Virus record (IMG/VR): IMGVR_UViG_3300032318_002198
Reading direction: 5' to 3' (one strand)
Length of the DNA: 64,000 bases
Source of the DNA: a virus
Lineage: Duplodnaviria; Heunggongvirae; Uroviricota; Caudoviricetes
Shown here piece after piece: positions 8,075 through 44,758 of the stretch. The notes beneath the pieces were generated by a model, which did no database searches, was not told the origin of the DNA, and saw only the letters and a list, made by a program, of their open reading frames with translations. The position numbers and the translations under genes were made by a program. The stretch's first letter is position 1, and each line of letters opens with the position of its first letter.

Positions 8075-8767
8075 TCTATTTTTACTTTCTTTAGATCGAA
8101 CAGTGACAAAAATCCAATCTGATATAGGAATGTTATTTTTTAACATTTGTAATTTATATTGATGATACTCTTCTGTAGGTATTCTTTTAGTAGTTCCATC
8201 TTTATAAATTACTCCGATTGATCCTTTATTAAGTTTTCCCGAAATTGCTCCTCCAATTTTCCCGCCAATTGTTCCGGCCTTAGCGGCATGACCTAGTTGA
8301 AATCCTAATTTATTATTTTCTTTTTGTTTTGTACTAGTATTTTTAGATCGTGCCGATCGTTCTTCCGAAGTAATCCAATATTGATTTTGAAAAGGATGTT
8401 TACCTTGTATTGATAAATTAATATTGCGTTGTTTTGCGTTGGCACCAAAAATTACAGAATATTGTTTTTGACGATCAGAGCGAAGGGCACCACTAGAACC
8501 TTCTCCTCCATATGTACGATTATGTAAGATGCCTGTTTTTAAGTCTTTGCGCCCATACCAGTTAATATATCGACGTTCAAGTGCAAATGCACCGATTTCT
8601 GTAAGATTTTTTTCTAAAAATACAATACGACATTTATCTCTTGGAGTATGTACTCCTTTTCTATTTATTCGATGTTGTACAAAGGCTCGATTACCAAAAC
8701 CTTTTCCGATATAATAAGGGGTGCCATCTTTTCTTAAATAGGCATAAACATAAAAGTGTAAATACAT
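8060..8767 (-). CDS. GIY-YIG homing endonuclease, antisense and convergent on nrdB
   Basis: [19 protein letters not shown]...R...E...[10 protein letters not shown]. Confidence 0.85.
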
Positions 8768-8940
8768 TGCTGATGCTCCTTGAAAGCGTTAGAGTAGTTG
8801 GATATTTCCAGTATCGCGAACTACACTAATATTTATATTGACTTTAATATTTTTAATATATAAAGTATATGATAAGTAATTGGTGTAACAACATCGGAAG
8901 TTGACCTTAACGAACTTCCGGCTATATAAGGAGATATAAA

Positions 8941-9108
8941 ATGGCAAAGATACAAACAGAAACATTAGTAATCAAAATAAGTCGAATAATGAAAGATTCG
9001 GAAGATACCGCTGAATCAGTTATATCAGAAGAATTGTTAAATTCTATCGAGGCAGTCGCCGAAGAACTATTACCTAATGGTGTTATTGTAGAGTTAGGAG
9101 TAGAATAA
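8941..9108 (+). CDS. small hypothetical protein (55 aa)
   Basis: AAGGAG RBS; MAKIQTETLVIKISRIMKD...GVIVELGVE*; below ORF-track cutoff. Confidence 0.7.
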   Translation: MAKIQTETLVIKISRIMKDSEDTAESVISEELLNSIEAVAEELLPNGVIVELGVE

Positions 9109-9109
9109 T

Positions 9110-9346
9110 ATGAAAAATGTAATTTTGTGGTCTCGTTATTATTGCCCATATTGTGACCAAGCCAAATCTCTTTTACAACTAAACGGAATTAAATTCGAGG
9201 AACGTAAAATTGGAGACGGATGGACCAAAGAAGACTTACTTGAAAATATTCCTACTGCTAGATCTGTACCACAAATTTTAGTCAATGGCAATTTGGTTGG
9301 TGGGTATAATGAATTGAAAAAGTACTTAGGAGAAAATCATGAGTAA
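9110..9346 (+). CDS. glutaredoxin
   Basis: CPYC active site, RSVPQI, GGY. Confidence 0.92.
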   Translation: MKNVILWSRYYCPYCDQAKSLLQLNGIKFEERKIGDGWTKEDLLENIPTARSVPQILVNGNLVGGYNELKKYLGENHE

Positions 9347-9740
9347 AAATATTCTTGACACTATTACATTAGATAATGTAATGTATGATACTATGTCACC
9401 TAACTTAGATCCCTTACTAACAAAAGTATCTCTTACCAGTAATACTTTAAACGCCACGACTTTAAACACCACAGGAATGAATAATGGTAACCTTACTAGT
9501 GGAGGGACGTCATACACTTTTCCTACTTACACTTATCCTAATGTAACTATTAACGCAGCAGATGTTTCTAATTATAAAGATTTGATTGTTGATGGTAAAA
9601 GTCTCAAAACATTTATGGAAAAAATTGAAGAAAGACTGTTGATTTTACAACCTGATCCTAAGAAATTAGAAAAACATGCTGCACTAAAAAAAGCATACGA
9701 TCATTATAAGTTAATGGAAAAGTTGTTAGGTGAAGAATAA
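9339..9740 (+). CDS. hypothetical protein
   Basis: ORF in operon. Confidence 0.6.
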   Translation: MSKNILDTITLDNVMYDTMSPNLDPLLTKVSLTSNTLNATTLNTTGMNNGNLTSGGTSYTFPTYTYPNVTINAADVSNYKDLIVDGKSLKTFMEKIEERLLILQPDPKKLEKHAALKKAYDHYKLMEKLLGEE

Positions 9741-9759
9741 ATTAAGAAAGAAATAATAA

Positions 9760-10047
9760 ATGTTAATTAATAAAGGTTTCTCCTCAGGAGATGTAGTTAG
9801 TATCAAAATAGTAAACGGCGATGAATTAATTGCTAGATTTGAATCTGAGACAACCGAAGATATTACAATAGCAAAGCCATTGGCTCTTACAATGGGTCCA
9901 CAGGGTCTTGGAATGATTCCGTGGATGTTTCTTGCAGAAAAAGATAACATCACCTTAAAAAAGAATCATATATTTGCAATGGGAATCAGTAAGAAAGATG
10001 CTGCTGATCAATATATGCAAGGAACTACTGGCATTGCTTTACGTTAA
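9760..10047 (+). CDS. hypothetical protein (possible Sm/SH3-like fold)
   Basis: GDVVSIKIVNGDELIARF beta-rich pattern; fold is inference. Confidence 0.55.
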   Translation: MLINKGFSSGDVVSIKIVNGDELIARFESETTEDITIAKPLALTMGPQGLGMIPWMFLAEKDNITLKKNHIFAMGISKKDAADQYMQGTTGIALR

Positions 10048-10062
10048 ATAAAAGGATTTTAA

Positions 10063-10944
10063 ATGCCATTCGTAAAAGGTCCAAATGTACACGGTGTAAC
10101 TCACGTTGCAGATGTATATAATAGTCCTAATGTATTTGCTAATTTTGTGCCTATTGCACTGTGGAATGATCCGCAAGGTACTGAAGCAGCAATTGCAAGT
10201 GCAATTGCTAGTCCAACTTTTACGATAGATTCATCAACAATAGTATTTGATGGTGACGAAAATCCTACCACAGTTAGTATTGAACAACAACGTCTTATAA
10301 AAGAAGGTGTGATTACACAAGCAGAACTTGATGCAGGAAAAAACGCCGTTCCGTCTACTTTTGATTCCACCGTCGTACCTGTTAATACTGGTACAATAGA
10401 AGGATCGACTACGTTGGCAACTAAAATTGATGATACATTATTATATCAGAGCCCTAGTAATGACACTGGTATAACCTACTATGTAAAAACAGTAACAAAA
10501 CAACCAGGGGTTATTTTTCCGTATGATGTTGCTAGTATTGCTCCAAGAAATAATGTATCAGTACAGGAAGTATGTGATAATTTACGATTGCTTATATTAA
10601 ATTGTTTCGATCTCATTAAAAAACAATATCCTGATGCATTTATAACAAATTCATTTAGGGCTAAAGGTACTAATTCAACTAGTCAACATCCTCGTGGTAT
10701 GGCTTGCGATATTCAATATTCAAAAGCAAGTAAAGCAGAGTATTATACCAGAGCATTGTGGATCAGAGATAATATAGCCTTTGATCAATTTATTTTAGAA
10801 TATAAAACTACCGGATCAAAACAACCTTGGCATCATATTAGTTTTAATATGGCAGGGAATAGGAGTCAAATTTTTACATTTTTAAATGATAAAAACTTCA
10901 AAGGCCCCGGTGTTCAAGGATTATATAATCTAACAAATGTTTAA
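10063..10944 (+). CDS. peptidase M15 family cell-wall hydrolase domain protein
   Basis: NSFR...SQHPRGMACD...WHHIS zinc motifs. Confidence 0.75.
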   Translation: MPFVKGPNVHGVTHVADVYNSPNVFANFVPIALWNDPQGTEAAIASAIASPTFTIDSSTIVFDGDENPTTVSIEQQRLIKEGVITQAELDAGKNAVPSTFDSTVVPVNTGTIEGSTTLATKIDDTLLYQSPSNDTGITYYVKTVTKQPGVIFPYDVASIAPRNNVSVQEVCDNLRLLILNCFDLIKKQYPDAFITNSFRAKGTNSTSQHPRGMACDIQYSKASKAEYYTRALWIRDNIAFDQFILEYKTTGSKQPWHHISFNMAGNRSQIFTFLNDKNFKGPGVQGLYNLTNV

Positions 10945-10954
10945 GAATGCTTTC

Positions 10955-11038
10955 GTAGGGGTAAACTCACGTAGTGAGTTGAAACAGTGAAAGACTGTTT
11001 GGCTCGGCAGAGGCCCTACCCGCCCTAGGAAGTCTGCC
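10955..11038 (+). ncRNA. unidentified structured RNA with possible pseudoknot
   Basis: GTAGGG/CCCTAC encloses hairpins AACTCAC/GTGAGTT and AAACAGT/ACTGTTT; GGCAGA inside can pair with TCTGCC outside. Confidence 0.5.
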
Positions 11039-11147
11039 ACTTTACAATGTATAAAAATAAATATATACTATGATTGAAGCTTGTTTAATATTTTTATTCA
11101 TAGCAGCCTTGGTTTGGTTGGATGATTATTATAATAAGCAATGATTA

Positions 11148-11222
11148 TTGCTGTGAAGACCGAAAGGAAAGAAGCAACGTAGATGCAGGCAAGACGCGAA
11201 TTCTTTTAAGACACAAGTTCAA
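11148..11222 (+). pseudogene. truncated tmRNA acceptor-piece remnant(s)
   Basis: GTAGATGCAGGCAAGACGCG and AAGACACAAGTTCAAT resemble the pre-T-arm and T-loop of tmRNA but lack an acceptor 3' strand. Confidence 0.55.
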
Positions 11223-11261
11223 TACCGCCCTATGTAAATATAATTATATGGAGGCGGTATG
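11222..11261 (+). promoter_or_regulatory. hairpin sequestering SD and start codon of GIY-YIG gene
   Basis: ATACCGCC/GGCGGTAT stem overlaps GGAGG and ATG; TAAATA in loop. Confidence 0.75.
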
Positions 11262-12071
11262 TTTTTTTATGTATATCAAATAACTAATTTAATTAATGGT
11301 AAAATTTATGTGGGAAAACATAAATCTACCAAACACCCGAATGAAAATGGATATTACGGATCGGGTAAGCAAATAAATTCTGCTATTAAGAAATATGGCA
11401 TTAATAATTTTAAAAAAGAAGTTTTATGCTATTGTTCTTCTTTGGAAGAAATGGCTGCTAAAGAAGCAGAAATAGTTACAGAAGATTTTGTCAAAAGAAA
11501 AGATACCTATAATATGCACAAGGGAGGGTTTGGTGGATTTGAACACATAAATCTAGATCCTAAAAAACGACTCGAAGTAAGCAATCAAGCATCAAAAAGA
11601 AATAAAGAATTAGGATTAGGTGGAACCCAACACTGGACAGACGAGAGTTGGAGAAAAGTTCGTGAAAAAAGTTGGACAGAATTAATTAGACAAGGTATAT
11701 TTGATCCAAATACTTGGGATAGTATGTCGAACGAAGAGAAAGAAAAGCGTCGAAAAAATATATCAAACAAAGTCTCTGGATCCAACAATGGTTCTTATGG
11801 AACTAAAATTTATATTGACGAGAATCATAACAGAGACTTACCGCCTGCAAATATTCTAAACAAACAACGATTCAAACCAGGCGAACAACCTAAAGGATGG
11901 ATTCCCGTTACTGAATGGAGAGATCGTAAAAAGAACAAAAAGGCAAATGCATATGGCAGACATTGGTATAATGATGGCCAAAAGAACTATTATTTGTATC
12001 CTACAGATGCTAAAATAATAGAACTACGTTTAGAAAAACGTAGATTAATAAATAAAAATATCATCGTATGA
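11259..12071 (+). CDS. GIY-YIG homing endonuclease
   Basis: FYVYQITNLINGKIYVGKH...YYGSG...E...YNMHKGG; NUMOD-like C-terminal repeats. Confidence 0.9.
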   Translation: MFFYVYQITNLINGKIYVGKHKSTKHPNENGYYGSGKQINSAIKKYGINNFKKEVLCYCSSLEEMAAKEAEIVTEDFVKRKDTYNMHKGGFGGFEHINLDPKKRLEVSNQASKRNKELGLGGTQHWTDESWRKVREKSWTELIRQGIFDPNTWDSMSNEEKEKRRKNISNKVSGSNNGSYGTKIYIDENHNRDLPPANILNKQRFKPGEQPKGWIPVTEWRDRKKNKKANAYGRHWYNDGQKNYYLYPTDAKIIELRLEKRRLINKNIIV

Positions 12072-12360
12072 AAGAAAGAGAAACGAGGTTCGGACGGGGC
12101 TAGCATATGCCCCCAGGTCCACCAGAGGTAGTTTTATTGGTGAATTTGCCTTAATATCGGAGTAGAAATACCGATAGATAGAATTACCTCTAATGGGCCT
12201 GAACAGATTCGACGGAACTACTAGTAACGGACTGGACGATGCGTTAGATGACGAACGTTAATCGCATAAAACTATAAACGCAAACGACAGCGTATTTGCT
12301 CTCGCAGCCTGAAAAACTAGCGAAGCCGGGGTAGGAAAGACCTTGTAATCAAACAAACCA
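12070..12360 (+). ncRNA. ssrA: circularly permuted (two-piece) tmRNA, tag ANDSVFALAA
   Basis: Acceptor piece GGAC-GGGGC/GCCCC-CAGGTCC-ACCA ends 12124; hairpin spacer; coding piece starts GGGCCTG at 12195 (pairs with CAGGTCC, G3:U70); tag GCA AAC GAC AGC GTA TTT GCT CTC GCA GCC TGA at 12280-12312. Confidence 0.92.
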
Positions 12361-12361
12361 G

Positions 12362-12386
12362 AAAGGCTACTTCGGTAGCCTTTTTT
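12362..12386 (+). terminator. rho-independent terminator
   Basis: AAAGGCTAC-TTCG-GTAGCCTTTTTT. Confidence 0.85.
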
Positions 12387-12424
12387 CTTGACTTCTATAT
12401 TTAAAGACAGTATTATTAATATAT

Positions 12425-12499
12425 GCGCTAGAAGCTGATTGGATAGCCAGAGCCTCTAAAACTCTTGATTAATGGGTTCGAATCCCATCTAGCGCACCA
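12425..12499 (+). tRNA. amber suppressor tRNA (anticodon CTA)
   Basis: GCGCTAG/CTAGCGC acceptor, AGAGC-CTCTAAA-ACTCT anticodon arm, TTCGAAT T-loop, ACCA. Confidence 0.75.
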
Positions 12500-12514
12500 G
12501 ATAAAGGTTGATAA

Positions 12515-12901
12515 ATGAGAAATATTAGGAGAAATGTCATGCGTAGTGTAAAAATCGATAAAAAGAAATTGTTAACTATTGTTAAAGAAAACAAAGATAA
12601 ACATATTGTTGAATACAATGAAAGTGTAGCAGATTATAAATCTGCCGCTATTAAACTTGCATCAGAACATGTTGAACTAGCAAAGTCCGGCAAGTTATCT
12701 GAAATTGCTAAGATTAAATCAATGCCTCAAGTCCCGGCAAGTTACGAAAAAGAATATGATCGTGCTATCCGTATGCTCGAACTTAGCGTTGATAAAGAAA
12801 TTGAACTCGAAGATGACATATTCAATCAACTGGTACTTGATGAATGGGATTGGAAAAATCAATTTGTTAGTTCTTCAATGTTATATAAAACAATGAGCTA
12901 A
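12515..12901 (+). CDS. hypothetical protein (likely start 12539)
   Basis: ORF with AGGAG before second ATG. Confidence 0.65.
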   Translation: MRNIRRNVMRSVKIDKKKLLTIVKENKDKHIVEYNESVADYKSAAIKLASEHVELAKSGKLSEIAKIKSMPQVPASYEKEYDRAIRMLELSVDKEIELEDDIFNQLVLDEWDWKNQFVSSSMLYKTMS

Positions 12902-12989
12902 ATAGTTTGTAGGGAGTTAATTCTCCCTAATTAATTTAAAAAAGGAAATAAAAATGTCGTAGATTTCGGAATTTGCTTGTAAAGATTTA

Positions 12990-13547
12990 GTGTTTTCATT
13001 TAATAAAAAACACCTAGAAGATCAAACCATACCCATGTGGAAAATAGCATTTCATGGGGAAACTTATTATGTCAATCATGTGGAATGCAATGTTCCATGG
13101 TCTACCAAAGAGACAAGTGACAACCCGCATACCAAAGGTTCTATCAAAGTCAAAGATTGTTTATTGACTATCGATGAACATAATAATGCATCAATCATCA
13201 AACTTACTATAATTGATAAAGCACGATTACGCAATCAAAGATTGGGTATAACTCGTATCATTGTTAAAGAAGGGATGGATCATCAAAAATTCCTACAACT
13301 TCTTAAACAACTTTCTATTAAACATAACCCAATTAAGAAAATTAGTGGTGCTTGCTCTAGCACATTTTATGTTTGTGATATATTAGATAAATCACAATTT
13401 ACTATGTTAAGTCTATCTATGAGCAATGCGTCTAGTTTTCGTATATTGATGCCAAATGAAAGTTATTATAAATGGTATGATGATCCAAAAAATGCCAATC
13501 GGGACGTAATTTGGGAGGAAGATCAAGATTGGGACGATGATGAATAA
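12990..13547 (+). CDS. hypothetical protein
   Basis: ORF track. Confidence 0.6.
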   Translation: MFSFNKKHLEDQTIPMWKIAFHGETYYVNHVECNVPWSTKETSDNPHTKGSIKVKDCLLTIDEHNNASIIKLTIIDKARLRNQRLGITRIIVKEGMDHQKFLQLLKQLSIKHNPIKKISGACSSTFYVCDILDKSQFTMLSLSMSNASSFRILMPNESYYKWYDDPKNANRDVIWEEDQDWDDDE

Positions 13548-13573
13548 ATAAAATTATTCAAGGAGCCACAAAT

Positions 13574-13918
13574 ATGTTCAAAGTAAAAATTGTGGCGTTC
13601 CTATTCTGCTTAATCAGCACCATAGCCAACGCCGAACCATCTCAAATTAATAGAGCGATAGTATGTGATAAAATCGAAGAAGTAGCCATGTTGATAAAGA
13701 AATATGGTGAAAAACCTGTTTGGCAAGGAAAAAATATTCAAGGTCTTCAAACTGTTTTAACATTAAATGGCCAAACTAAAACTTGGTCTTTAATAATTAC
13801 CGATGGTGAACTTGCTTGTATTTTAGATGCCGGGTTAGATTTTGTCATTGAAAAACCCACTTCTACACCAAAAGTTGATAAGAAAAATTTAACAAATGTG
13901 ACTGCTAAATATATGTAA
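13574..13918 (+). CDS. hypothetical exported protein
   Basis: Signal-peptide-like N-terminus, AAGGAG RBS. Confidence 0.6.
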   Translation: MFKVKIVAFLFCLISTIANAEPSQINRAIVCDKIEEVAMLIKKYGEKPVWQGKNIQGLQTVLTLNGQTKTWSLIITDGELACILDAGLDFVIEKPTSTPKVDKKNLTNVTAKYM

Positions 13919-13939
13919 ATACATCCTAGGAATACAACG

Positions 13940-14464
13940 ATGAAACAAAAACTTGACGAAAACGAAATAGTTGGTAATTTTTATAATTTTGCTATTTCTA
14001 GAAAAACATTAAATGAATTTGCAGGCATGTCAAAATCAATGGATGACAATGAAGTAATTGACAAACCTGATGTAGTTGATAGACCTAATACCGACGTAAA
14101 TGATCTCGGTGATGCTAGAAAAGAATTATTAAGAATTATGAAATTGGCAGGCCAAGGAGATACTGAAAAGAAACCTGCCGGGTGGAATTTGGTTTTATAT
14201 GACGATCCTGTTACTCCTGGGGAAGCTGTAATCGAAGGTTTAAGATCTGTTATGAATTTTGGAGATGGAGATATTGCTAGGGTACTGCGCGATATTGTCC
14301 AAAATCAACAATCGGTTTTGGGAGTTTACGCCATTGAAGATCGTGCATTGAAATTGAGAGATGCACTAAAACGATTTGTGGATAACAATAACAGATATAT
14401 CGGTGGAGATGGTACTCGTGGTCCTTGGGATCTCCAGGTTGAGGTTCTTAAAGCAGGTGATTGA
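13940..14464 (+). CDS. divergent ClpS-like domain protein
   Basis: WNLVLYDDPVTPGEAVIEGLRSV...SVLGVY..E resembles the ClpS core. Confidence 0.6.
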   Translation: MKQKLDENEIVGNFYNFAISRKTLNEFAGMSKSMDDNEVIDKPDVVDRPNTDVNDLGDARKELLRIMKLAGQGDTEKKPAGWNLVLYDDPVTPGEAVIEGLRSVMNFGDGDIARVLRDIVQNQQSVLGVYAIEDRALKLRDALKRFVDNNNRYIGGDGTRGPWDLQVEVLKAGD

Positions 14465-14739
14465 TAAATCATATGCCAAACTATACAAAAAAATATAGAA
14501 CAATAGCAATTAGTGATTGCTGCAATAGGAAATCCTAAGTCGGCTACTAAAATCCAAAGCCTTTCTCTCAGTTACAAAATATTTATAGATTAAACAAATT
14601 TTTTAAATTAGCATTTTATAAAACTTGTAACAAAACTGTAACAAGGCAGAAGAAAAAAGTAATTTATTTACTTCACAGTAAAAAGACTATTTTGGTAGCT
14701 TTTTTTATTTGAATAAATATATCATTAGCAGGATTTATT

Positions 14740-16044
14740 ATGAGATCTCGTGAATTTATAATCGAATATAATCGTGAGGTTACATTGCGTAATCGTAAGA
14801 TACGTGACGGTCTTTTACAACAATATGCTGTCAATATGCCAGGTGGTAAGGTAAACGATGCAGTATTTACATATATGGCCGACAGCGTTCTTAACCGTAT
14901 GATGACTGAAATTGAAAACGTTGTAATACCAGGAGTTCCAAAAAACTATTTTGCTCCGTGGCTAGCATTGTGGATGTCACGCGGATATTTTGAAGCGAAT
15001 GAATGGGATCAGTACAGCCAAAATACCTCAGCATGGCGTTTTCGTGGAATAATACCATTACTCGAAGCATATTACAAATATAAAAATAAATCTTGGTTTC
15101 CAAAAGAATATAAAGACATATATAAATTAAGTCCAATAAAATTACATGAAGTAATTACTAATTTAGAAGTACCTGAAGAACTTGTTACCGACCGTGGAAA
15201 TACCAAAGTAGTATTAGATAATAGCGAAATCCGTATTCTACACATATTGGATAAAGCTGCTGCTATTTATTATGGGCAAGGCACCAATCCACGCTGGTGT
15301 ACATCTTATACCGACAGTGAAAATAAGTTCGATTATTATAATAGCCTTGGACCATTATACGTTTTATTACCAAAAAAACCTCAACATGTTGGGGAAAAAT
15401 ATCAAATGCATTTTCATCGATTTTCTAGTGATGAATATACCGATGAACATAATGAGTTTATTGGATTTAATGCGTTAATTGATCGTTTTGGTGAAGAGTT
15501 CAAAAACTGGTTGCTTGATTTGCGACCAAAATATAAAGAATCGATGATGTTAGAAGATGAGAAGACTATTCTAAAGTTATGGCAAGGATTTGGCGATTAT
15601 GTTTATGATAGATTCAAAAAAGAAGGTGAAGAGTTGGTAAATGATGGTCTTAACTATTATAGCGGCGATGAAGATGTTATGAAGTGGGCAAAATTTAGCC
15701 AGAAAAAGATGTTGGAAATTTGGGATACAATACAAAATACCTCCATAGAACAAATACGTAGAATTGCAAGTGAAAATTATGATAAAGATGGAAGTTTATG
15801 GCATATAACTGATGTAATAGTATTATGGGATGAATTATTTGATCAATATGCTAGAGAGTCAAATTTATTTAAGTTTAAAAGTACTTATAAATATTTTGAT
15901 CTTTATGATATAATAGGTGGTAGACCATACATAGTTAAAGCAGACGAAATGGATAGCAATGAAGTTATTAAGGTTCGACATGTCTATGATCTTGAACGAA
16001 TCGGTGATTATGTGATCCTTTCCCTCGGTGGTTATAGGAATTGA
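14740..16044 (+). CDS. hypothetical late protein, MRxREF family, PcfJ-like WCT..Y...GPLY motif
   Basis: N-terminus MRSREFIIEY; RWCTS...YYNSLGPLYV; paralogous to 51771 and 57813. Confidence 0.6.
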   Translation: MRSREFIIEYNREVTLRNRKIRDGLLQQYAVNMPGGKVNDAVFTYMADSVLNRMMTEIENVVIPGVPKNYFAPWLALWMSRGYFEANEWDQYSQNTSAWRFRGIIPLLEAYYKYKNKSWFPKEYKDIYKLSPIKLHEVITNLEVPEELVTDRGNTKVVLDNSEIRILHILDKAAAIYYGQGTNPRWCTSYTDSENKFDYYNSLGPLYVLLPKKPQHVGEKYQMHFHRFSSDEYTDEHNEFIGFNALIDRFGEEFKNWLLDLRPKYKESMMLEDEKTILKLWQGFGDYVYDRFKKEGEELVNDGLNYYSGDEDVMKWAKFSQKKMLEIWDTIQNTSIEQIRRIASENYDKDGSLWHITDVIVLWDELFDQYARESNLFKFKSTYKYFDLYDIIGGRPYIVKADEMDSNEVIKVRHVYDLERIGDYVILSLGGYRN

Positions 16045-44107: not shown

Positions 44108-44758
44108 ATGTTCTATACAATATACAAGATAACAAATCAGATCAATGGCAAGTTCTATATAGGAAGTCATAAGACCAAAAATTTGAATGACGGATACATG
44201 GGCTCAGGTAAGTACTTAAAATACGCAAAAGAAAAATATGGTATAACAAATTTTACAAAAGAAATTTTGTTCATATTTGATACTCCTGAGCAAATGTATG
44301 CTAAAGAATCCGAAATAGTAAATGAAGAATTCCTCGCAACAGAAAATACCTATAATCTAAAAGTAGGAGGATTTGGCGGTTTTGATTACATTAACGCTAA
44401 TCCTGAAAAATATCTTACCGAAAAAAGATTATCTGCATTAATGCCACAGTCTGAAAGACTTAGGAGGTATAAAGAAAAATTAGATAATGATCCTAAATTT
44501 AGGGAGGAACAGGCGGGACGTATGAAAATCGCTCGAGAAAAATGGTCTCGTAAATACCCGCAAGGTGTTTGGTTAGGTAGAAAACATAGTAAAGAAACAT
44601 TGGCTAAATTAAAAAATTCTGCGAAAGGTAAAGGTCTCGGAGAAAAAAACTCACAATTTGGTACAATGTGGATTACAGACGGAATAAAAAATAAAAAAAT
44701 TAAAAAAGACAAGTTAGTTCCTGAAGGATGGAAATTAGGGCGTGTTTTAAAATCGTAA
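44108..44758 (+). CDS. GIY-YIG homing endonuclease with NUMOD3-like repeats
   Basis: FYTIYKITNQINGKFYIGSH..YMGSG; HSKETLAKL; TATAAATA and RBS-occluding hairpin at 44062-44106. Confidence 0.9.
   Translation: MFYTIYKITNQINGKFYIGSHKTKNLNDGYMGSGKYLKYAKEKYGITNFTKEILFIFDTPEQMYAKESEIVNEEFLATENTYNLKVGGFGGFDYINANPEKYLTEKRLSALMPQSERLRRYKEKLDNDPKFREEQAGRMKIAREKWSRKYPQGVWLGRKHSKETLAKLKNSAKGKGLGEKNSQFGTMWITDGIKNKKIKKDKLVPEGWKLGRVLKS

Follow-up and report, generated by a model that had tools for sequence, protein, structure and literature searches.

Intronless homing with co-conversion is known from T-even phages (PMC2988022), and the closest known enzyme to the one described here, SegB of phage T4, has a 27-bp recognition site whose core, GGTTCRANTCC, is the T-arm of tRNAs, and cleaves tRNA genes close to their 3' end (PMC2330249). 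The T4 segB gene has a hairpin at its ribosome-binding site (RBS), and its stop codon abuts a tRNA; an RBS hairpin with a late promoter in its loop is an arrangement described for T4 endonuclease genes (PMC2330249). In fungal mitochondria, free-standing endonuclease open reading frames (ORFs) lie beside partial duplicates of atp6 or cob (PMC6279837), and phage-encoded two-piece transfer-messenger RNAs (tmRNAs) are already known (PMC9004378). We analysed a 64,000-nucleotide (nt) stretch of a T4-like phage genome (IMG/VR record IMGVR_UViG_3300032318_002198; this whole stretch is called the window below), in which a gene for a Seg-type GIY-YIG nuclease (seg) sits between a truncated piece of one tmRNA gene and a second, complete two-piece tmRNA gene with an unusual T-loop. 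From the anatomy of this locus, the linkage of nuclease and tmRNA genes among relatives, the presence/absence polymorphism of the insert and the association of seg with particular T-loop alleles, we infer that the enzyme cuts at the T-arm and that the odd loops confer immunity. Based on these sequences and on the analogy with SegB, we think it probable that a Seg-type GIY-YIG gene and a linked, complete tmRNA allele invaded a phage two-piece tmRNA gene through T-arm cutting, copying by repair and loop-based escape. We found no paper on free-standing endonuclease genes overwriting phage tmRNA genes, or on associated T-loop alleles.

Anatomy of the seg-tmRNA locus

The locus comprises the following features (window coordinates; + denotes the strand shown):

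11145..11198 (+), R1, truncated resident acceptor piece (leader and 5' part), by similarity to the relative L003
11208..11230 (+), R2, older degenerate T-arm relic (AAGAC, a mutated 5' stem, TTCAATA, CCGCC and C)
11222..11260 (+), hairpin, by folding, in which the 3' T-stem of R2 (ACCGCC) pairs with GGCGGT at the start of seg
11259..12071 (+), seg, free-standing Seg-type GIY-YIG homing endonuclease gene, 270 amino acids (Pfam, PHROG)
12062..12389 (+), complete two-piece tmRNA in the gene order acceptor piece, loop, coding piece (Rfam)
12062..12124 (+), acceptor piece, with the acceptor 3' strand CAGGTCC, then A, then CCA ending at 12124
12096..12113 (+), T-arm GGGGC-TAGCATAT-GCCCC, with an 8-nt non-canonical loop
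12125..12194 (+), intervening loop, excised between acceptor and coding pieces (Rfam alignment, alignment A2)
12195..12389 (+), coding piece, with the tag ANDSVFALAA at 12280-12309 and the stop TGA at 12310-12312
12362..12383 (+), terminator hairpin

A preliminary description of this DNA, made from the letters alone, had noted a GIY-YIG ORF with a complete tmRNA-like piece directly after it, and database searches bear this out, the piece being part of a complete permuted tmRNA. The product of seg matches SegE_GIY-YIG in Pfam (PF19835, 1.1e-8) and the homing endonucleases of PHROG 314 (4e-38), and the RNA gene is matched by the Rfam families tmRNA_permuted (RF04321; 12062-12312, 104 bits, full model 1-213) and beta_tmRNA (RF01850; 12017-12386, 90 bits, model 1-331). 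GGGCCUG pairs with CAGGUCC, giving G3:U70, the discriminator A and the encoded CCA are intact, and CGAUG of the coding piece pairs with the gene's own leader CAUCG, not with R1. The T-arm is the only odd part of the tRNA-like domain: its loop TAGCATAT, correctly called non-canonical at the outset and closed by a GGGGC/GCCCC stem, fits neither the canonical 7-nt TTCRANN nor the alpha-type GGCRGNN, and an exact search for the window T-arm in IMG/VR gave no match. No strong promoter was found directly 5' of this tmRNA, which is therefore probably transcribed from further upstream, through the scar and seg.

The N-domain of the nuclease (ca. 100 residues) is 51-54% identical to those of four T4 Seg proteins, SegB included, and the GIY-YIG motif residues are invariant across 10 homologues (alignment A1). 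The N-domains of the homologues are highly conserved, and their C-terminal regions are of at least two types. GxxNxxYG-like motifs, candidates for NUMOD-type DNA-binding motifs, are visible in the C-terminal region in alignment A1, without a Pfam match there, and BLAST found no similarity between this region and the C-terminus of SegB. Isolate phages yielded no close homologue of the window protein (best 34-37% identity), and a DNA-level search returned N-domain similarity only. The gene is equipped with a start codon and RBS of its own, it ends within the 5' leader helix of the tmRNA, which takes in its last three codons and the stop, and it is the only ORF in the 1.2-kb insert. An integrase island in the tmRNA gene was ruled out, seg being the sole ORF of the insert and the duplicated part being the 5' end of the tmRNA gene, not the 3' end.

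Upstream of seg lie the remains of earlier tmRNA sequences. R1 is a 54-nt front end that starts at the leader TTATTGCTGT (11145) and breaks off with GACGCG, three bases of the T-stem's 5' strand being retained. Aligned with the intact acceptor piece of L003 (9161-9212), positions 11147-11198 show 96% identity over 52 nt, and BLAST gives 100% over 42 nt (E 6e-20); after GACGCG, L003 reads on GGTTCGACTCCCGC-CTGGTCCACCA, into a canonical T-arm and CCA. The GCUGU of R1 has no pairing partner. R2 begins eight or nine bases 3' of the end of R1 and forms the left end of a module common to L030, L039 and L041 (module start 11205); its copies in L030, L031 and L041 are better preserved and match 20 of 23 bases of the canonical T-arm of L004. 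Both pieces had been recognized in the preliminary description as truncated and tmRNA-like, and both are real; the first starts slightly earlier than described, with its leader, and the second does not stop at the T-loop, continuing through the 3' T-stem CCGCC behind a degenerate 5' stem. An empty site is found in L006, in which a structured RNA, a small ORF and the leader TTATTGCTGT are followed by an uninterrupted, canonical acceptor piece; the order of small ORF, then leader, is identical at the left flank of the window.

The hairpin at 11222-11260 (dG -20.8 kcal/mol, z -5.35, none of 200 shuffles as good) is predicted to cover the Shine-Dalgarno sequence GGAGG and the seg start codon, and in L030, L031, L039 and L041 its loop carries the exact T4 late promoter motif TATAAATA. 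Another strong hairpin is present in L030 at 2909-2950, formed by the scar end GTGTTCTGGACG, a loop and a near inverse complement; fold-backs resembling it occur at other left junctions.

Linkage, polymorphism and decay of seg among relatives

A protein search with Seg yielded 9 viral loci (L030-L038) and 80 metagenome loci (L039-L118), in which tmRNA genes were sought using nhmmer with alignment A2; further relatives were retrieved via the baseplate hub gene, downstream of which the tmRNA lies at 214 to ca. 4,560 bases. Close homologues (full-length alignment, at least 41% identity) were counted only where enough downstream DNA was available. A permuted tmRNA directly follows seg in 43 of 43 close homologues, the window included (window, L030-L074), and the stop of the seg ORF in the tmRNA-linked homologues is always 9 nt inside the Rfam tmRNA start. 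Among the more distant full GIY-YIG genes (L075-L118), 0 of 43 are tmRNA-linked; the sole tmRNA match in this group, in L090, follows an internally deleted seg (189-600). Of 44 loci compared by BLAST, 33 have a truncated acceptor piece just ahead of seg. These scars frequently match intact alleles from phages lacking seg at 95-100% identity. Their ends range from ca. 48 nt before CCACC to a little beyond it, and about half fall within the T-arm. The genes upstream of the scars vary between loci, so the element follows the tmRNA gene and not a genomic neighbourhood.

The window and L030 are homologous, at 75% identity, over 11205-12393, a span bounded by the R2 start on the left and the terminator end on the right. 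This shared 1.19-kb module consists of the relic, the RBS-occluding hairpin, seg, the whole tmRNA and its terminator, so the shared unit takes in a whole tmRNA gene with terminator and not the acceptor piece alone, and the whole tmRNA gene is what is replaced. The earlier suggestion that a replacement is brought along with the nuclease thus stands as regards a linked tmRNA copy, and falls short as regards its extent. No sharp boundary could be seen at the right-hand junction in comparisons with L003 or L002, their coding pieces being only ca. 76% identical to that of the window.

The insert is polymorphic: L006 is empty, the window and 42 further loci are filled, and L288, L318 and L090 are decayed. 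In L288 the last ca. 20 codons of seg, and in L318 ca. 25 nt of its 3' end, are retained in fusion with the tmRNA start; together with L090, these are decayed seg genes representing the loss phase of the endonuclease life cycle. The comparison of tmRNA loci with and without the ORF, proposed in the preliminary description, thereby provides both states, and the empty site, the 43/43 linkage in unrelated upstream contexts and the lack of an intron core (see below) agree with its idea of an intron-less mobile endonuclease. A whole clade of homing endonucleases thus appears specialised on a non-coding RNA gene of phages, its layout recurring in more than 40 uncultured phages, and it offers a natural series of empty, filled, re-invaded and decayed sites.

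A second nuclease family uses the same site and layout. L003 contains at 8566-9212 an HNH gene on the minus strand (8612-9091), matching PHROG 655, which is flanked on one side by a type-B acceptor scar whose break is in the T-loop, and on the other by a promoter followed by a complete type-A tmRNA.

A second subtype of seg (L032, L035, L038, L052, L054, L061 and L062) was also observed, in which the T-arm of the scar is split by an insertion of ca. 15-20 nt, ca. 20-60 nt upstream of seg. The insertion folds into a hairpin of ca. 13 bp (L032: z -4.1) just before CATAAATA and the ATG, which points to a late promoter yielding a seg mRNA nearly devoid of leader. The TCGAAC...CGTC element of this subtype was considered as an inverted copy of the T-arm and set aside, the T-arm being nearly palindromic; it is equally explained as the direct 3' half, split by a loop insertion of ca. 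20 nt.

T-loop alleles linked to seg

T-arms of 35 unique seg-linked alleles were compared with those of 71 unique seg-independent alleles, of which 9 came from the hub-gene loci and 62 from a search with a pattern anchored in the coding piece. The T-loops fall into the following types:

TAKCRT(T)AK, 8-9 nt (window type): seg-linked 11/35, seg-independent 2/71
GGCRGNN-like (alpha-type): seg-linked 11/35, seg-independent 33/71
6-nt TTCGAW: seg-linked 7/35, seg-independent 4/71
Canonical-like: seg-linked 5/35, seg-independent 31/71
Other: seg-linked 1/35, seg-independent 1/71

The window type is enriched among the seg-linked alleles (odds ratio (OR) 15.8, p 7e-5, Fisher) and canonical loops are depleted (OR 0.22, p 0.0025, Fisher). 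Both seg-independent TAKCRT(T)AK alleles (L288 and L318) are exactly those that retain a 3' relic of seg. Where scars have kept their T-loop, it is canonical in 10 and alpha-type in 2 (L049 and L072), and the T-loop type of a scar is never that of its linked allele, except in L052 and L062. In L049 and L072 the linked alleles have TAGCAT(T)AT, and these scar-allele pairs look like successive rounds of replacement. We also considered that all non-canonical T-loops might be immunity alleles; this was ruled out, since the GGCAGTG loop is native to alphaproteobacterial tmRNAs, being found in more than 120 bacterial genomes, and is therefore a borrowed difference, not one invented for immunity.

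The T-stems of the odd alleles covary (GGGGC/GCCCC, CCGGC/GCCGG, TCGGC/GCCGA) and their tags are intact, which argues that the odd-loop RNAs are maintained under selection. Such natural tmRNA variants with 6-, 8- and 9-nt T-loops are material for asking what the T-loop does. ARAGORN misses the window tmRNA and the odd-loop alleles of L030, L035 and L036 and does call the ordinary-loop tmRNAs of L003, L004, L006, L022 and L038; in general, tmRNAs with 6-, 8- and 9-nt T-loops went uncalled and canonical and alpha-type relatives were called. Phage tmRNA genes with odd loops are therefore likely to be under-annotated, and the scars could be mistaken for broken genes.

Proposed mode of invasion and alternative explanations

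The invasion that we propose would proceed as follows. Seg would cut canonical-type tmRNA genes at or beside the junction of T-arm and acceptor, as SegB does at tRNA genes, and repair of the double-strand break on a seg-bearing template would transfer both seg and the accompanying tmRNA to the broken genome. This linked tmRNA allele would escape cutting because its T-loop is changed to TAGCATAT, and the upstream scars would be tolerated because their T-arm is deleted or degenerate, as in the window, or interrupted, as in other members of the family. Transcripts from the old upstream promoter probably extend through the scar and seg to include the tmRNA, and the hairpin may keep translation of Seg low until the late promoter in its loop fires. 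It is plausible that the permuted layout would make the insertion harmless, only ca. 55 nt of the old gene being stranded upstream. Targeting of the T-loop and a resistant replacement, both put forward in the preliminary description, are indirectly supported: scars break at or in the T-arm, retained scar loops are canonical, TAKCRT(T)AK occurs only with seg or its relic, and SegB provides the precedent. If correct, this would be a testable case of a selfish nuclease forcing change in a near-universal T-loop motif.

Several observations speak against this explanation. The left junction at R1 and R2 is not a plain homologous crossover, and the hairpin loop of the window carries TGTAAATA, an imperfect late-promoter motif. 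In L031 and L042 only seg is in common with the window, so recombination can separate seg from the tmRNA. The loci compared are related, and the Fisher p-values are therefore rough and overstate significance. Finally, 5 of the 35 seg-linked alleles have canonical-like T-loops and 11 have a GGCRGNN loop that did not evolve for immunity. The last two figures would fit an alternative that we regard as unlikely, namely that the gene was replaced as described, with recognition lying elsewhere (leader helix, intervening loop or flanking DNA) and the odd T-loops hitch-hiking with a founding cassette. The cuts of free-standing Seg enzymes can lie a long way from where their genes are inserted (PMC2988022), and a putative C-terminal DNA-binding region unlike that of SegB would fit recognition outside the T-arm as well. 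However, about half of the scars break at or in the T-arm (others end well upstream of it), the relics put the original insertion point directly 3' of the T-stem, and near this point the L003-type presumed target and the window allele have the same acceptor 3' strand and different T-arms. Moreover, several distinct types of odd loop accompany one nuclease clade, for which a single founder effect is insufficient.

It seems to us quite improbable that the nuclease is kept mainly for the benefit of the phage, be it by destroying the tmRNA locus of co-infecting relatives (marker exclusion) or by bringing in a tmRNA allele beyond the reach of some host or rival factor directed at the T-loop. In T-even phages, Seg and Mob enzymes are well known to cause marker exclusion (PMC2988022; PMC2330249), and the survival of the odd-loop allele after loss of seg in L288 and L318 would be in line with such a benefit, but seg is decayed or deleted in these two loci and in L090, as expected of a selfish gene, and most sampled phage tmRNAs are without seg. 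A group I intron with an endonuclease ORF in the T-loop, i.e., an 'intron form' of the tmRNA gene, is very hard to credit, although group I introns, some with LAGLIDADG genes, occupy four subsites in tmRNA T-loops (PMC11915505): no Rfam family of group I or group II introns matched at E<=10 in 9000-15000 or 10930-12140, in agreement with the initial remark that no group I core lies beside the ORF, R1 has no matching 3' exon, and splicing is not needed for the downstream copy, a complete gene that brings its own leader. Chance purine-rich similarity, or an ordinary tandem duplication into which an unrelated gene was inserted, can practically be dismissed; the GAAAGG-rich stretch is of low complexity, but 96-100% identity to the intact gene of a relative over 42-52 nt and the recurrence of the layout in more than 40 loci refute both.

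Beyond the proposed invasion by T-arm cutting and loop-based escape, we tentatively suggest a wider picture, possible on present sequences though far from certain. The tmRNA T-arm might be the field of an arms race in which two subtypes of GIY-YIG nuclease, differing in their C-terminal domains, and an HNH lineage overwrite one another's alleles, from canonical to alpha-type or odd loops and from alpha-type to TAGCAT(T)AT (L049, L072). The 8-9-nt loops would then be immunity alleles selected by the nucleases, in an RNA still active in trans-translation, and one of the best conserved loops in RNA would prove unexpectedly tolerant of change. As the stop codon of seg lies inside the mature acceptor piece, excision of the tmRNA would leave the seg mRNA without a stop, so the nuclease might be tagged for degradation by its own tmRNA.

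Genome context

The left flank of the locus contains two further features:

10955..11038, GC-rich structured RNA, between the hub/lysozyme gene and the small ORF
11070..11144 (+), small hydrophobic ORF of 24 codons (MIEACLIF...DDYYNKQ), which marks the resident left flank

The baseplate hub/lysozyme gene lies at 10063-10944, and the C-terminal ca. 120 amino acids of its product are ca. 47% identical to the counterpart in Methylophilales phage Melnitz. The structured RNA, which had no Rfam match at E<=10, is kept in L002, L003 (3' part only), L004, L006, L039 and L040 and may possibly regulate the small ORF or the tmRNA transcript. The small ORF is 94% identical to that of L003 and adjoins the tmRNA leader in the empty site of L006; it is preserved in L002 too, and the differences among the window, L002, L003 and L006 are, judged by eye, largely synonymous. 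A sigma-70-like site (TTTACA-17-TATACT, 11041-11069) ends right at its ATG, and the ORF may thus be leaderless.

The window contains ca. 30 tRNA genes. One with an amber (CTA) anticodon lies at 12425-12499, just 3' of the tmRNA; L027, L028 and L041 have a tRNA at the equivalent position, and in L035 and L036 the tmRNA is followed by one with a CTA anticodon, so the pairing of tmRNA and suppressor recurs. A second Seg-type GIY-YIG N-domain is encoded at 44108-44416 within the tRNA cluster and is 54% identical over 105 amino acids to that of the tmRNA-linked Seg.

Comparison with known systems

Integrase islands of the Islander class in tmRNA genes (PMC4383910) resemble the present element in that the target is split and then restored by the element, with a displaced fragment left behind. 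They differ in that the present element lacks both an integrase and an exact att repeat, what it displaces is the 5' portion of the gene and not its 3' end, and the mechanism is presumably break repair instead of site-specific recombination. The group I introns of tmRNA T-loops (PMC11915505) likewise show that the T-arm of tmRNA is a hot spot for mobile elements, and some of them carry endonuclease genes; here, however, there is no ribozyme, a second gene copy takes the place of splicing, the gene is the permuted one of a phage, and the nuclease is of the GIY-YIG and not the LAGLIDADG type. The atp6 and cob systems of fungal mitochondria (PMC6279837) also have an endonuclease ORF between a gene and its partial duplicate, but theirs are C-terminal, protein-coding duplicates in organelles, whereas here the 5' part of a phage RNA gene is duplicated and a conserved loop is structurally altered in the replacement.

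With SegF, SegG and MobE of T-even phages (PMC2988022) the element shares presence/absence polymorphism, co-conversion of flanking DNA, a donor presumed to be resistant, and the use of the same kind of site by HNH and GIY-YIG genes. Those genes sit between or inside protein genes without duplication of the target, whereas in the window the target is part-duplicated and its old copy disabled. The likeness to T4 SegB (PMC2330249) is closer still: SegB is free-standing among tRNA-like genes, its N-domain is 51-52% identical to that of the window Seg, its stop abuts the next RNA gene, a hairpin lies over its RBS, and the region that it cuts is the one in which the scars described here break. The two differ in their C-terminal regions, which are unrelated by BLAST, and in their targets, a two-piece tmRNA in the window and tRNAs in T4. 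The tRNA genes of T4 itself stay cleavable, whereas the element in the window leaves a truncated target together with a full replacement whose T-loop is altered, neither of which has been reported for SegB.

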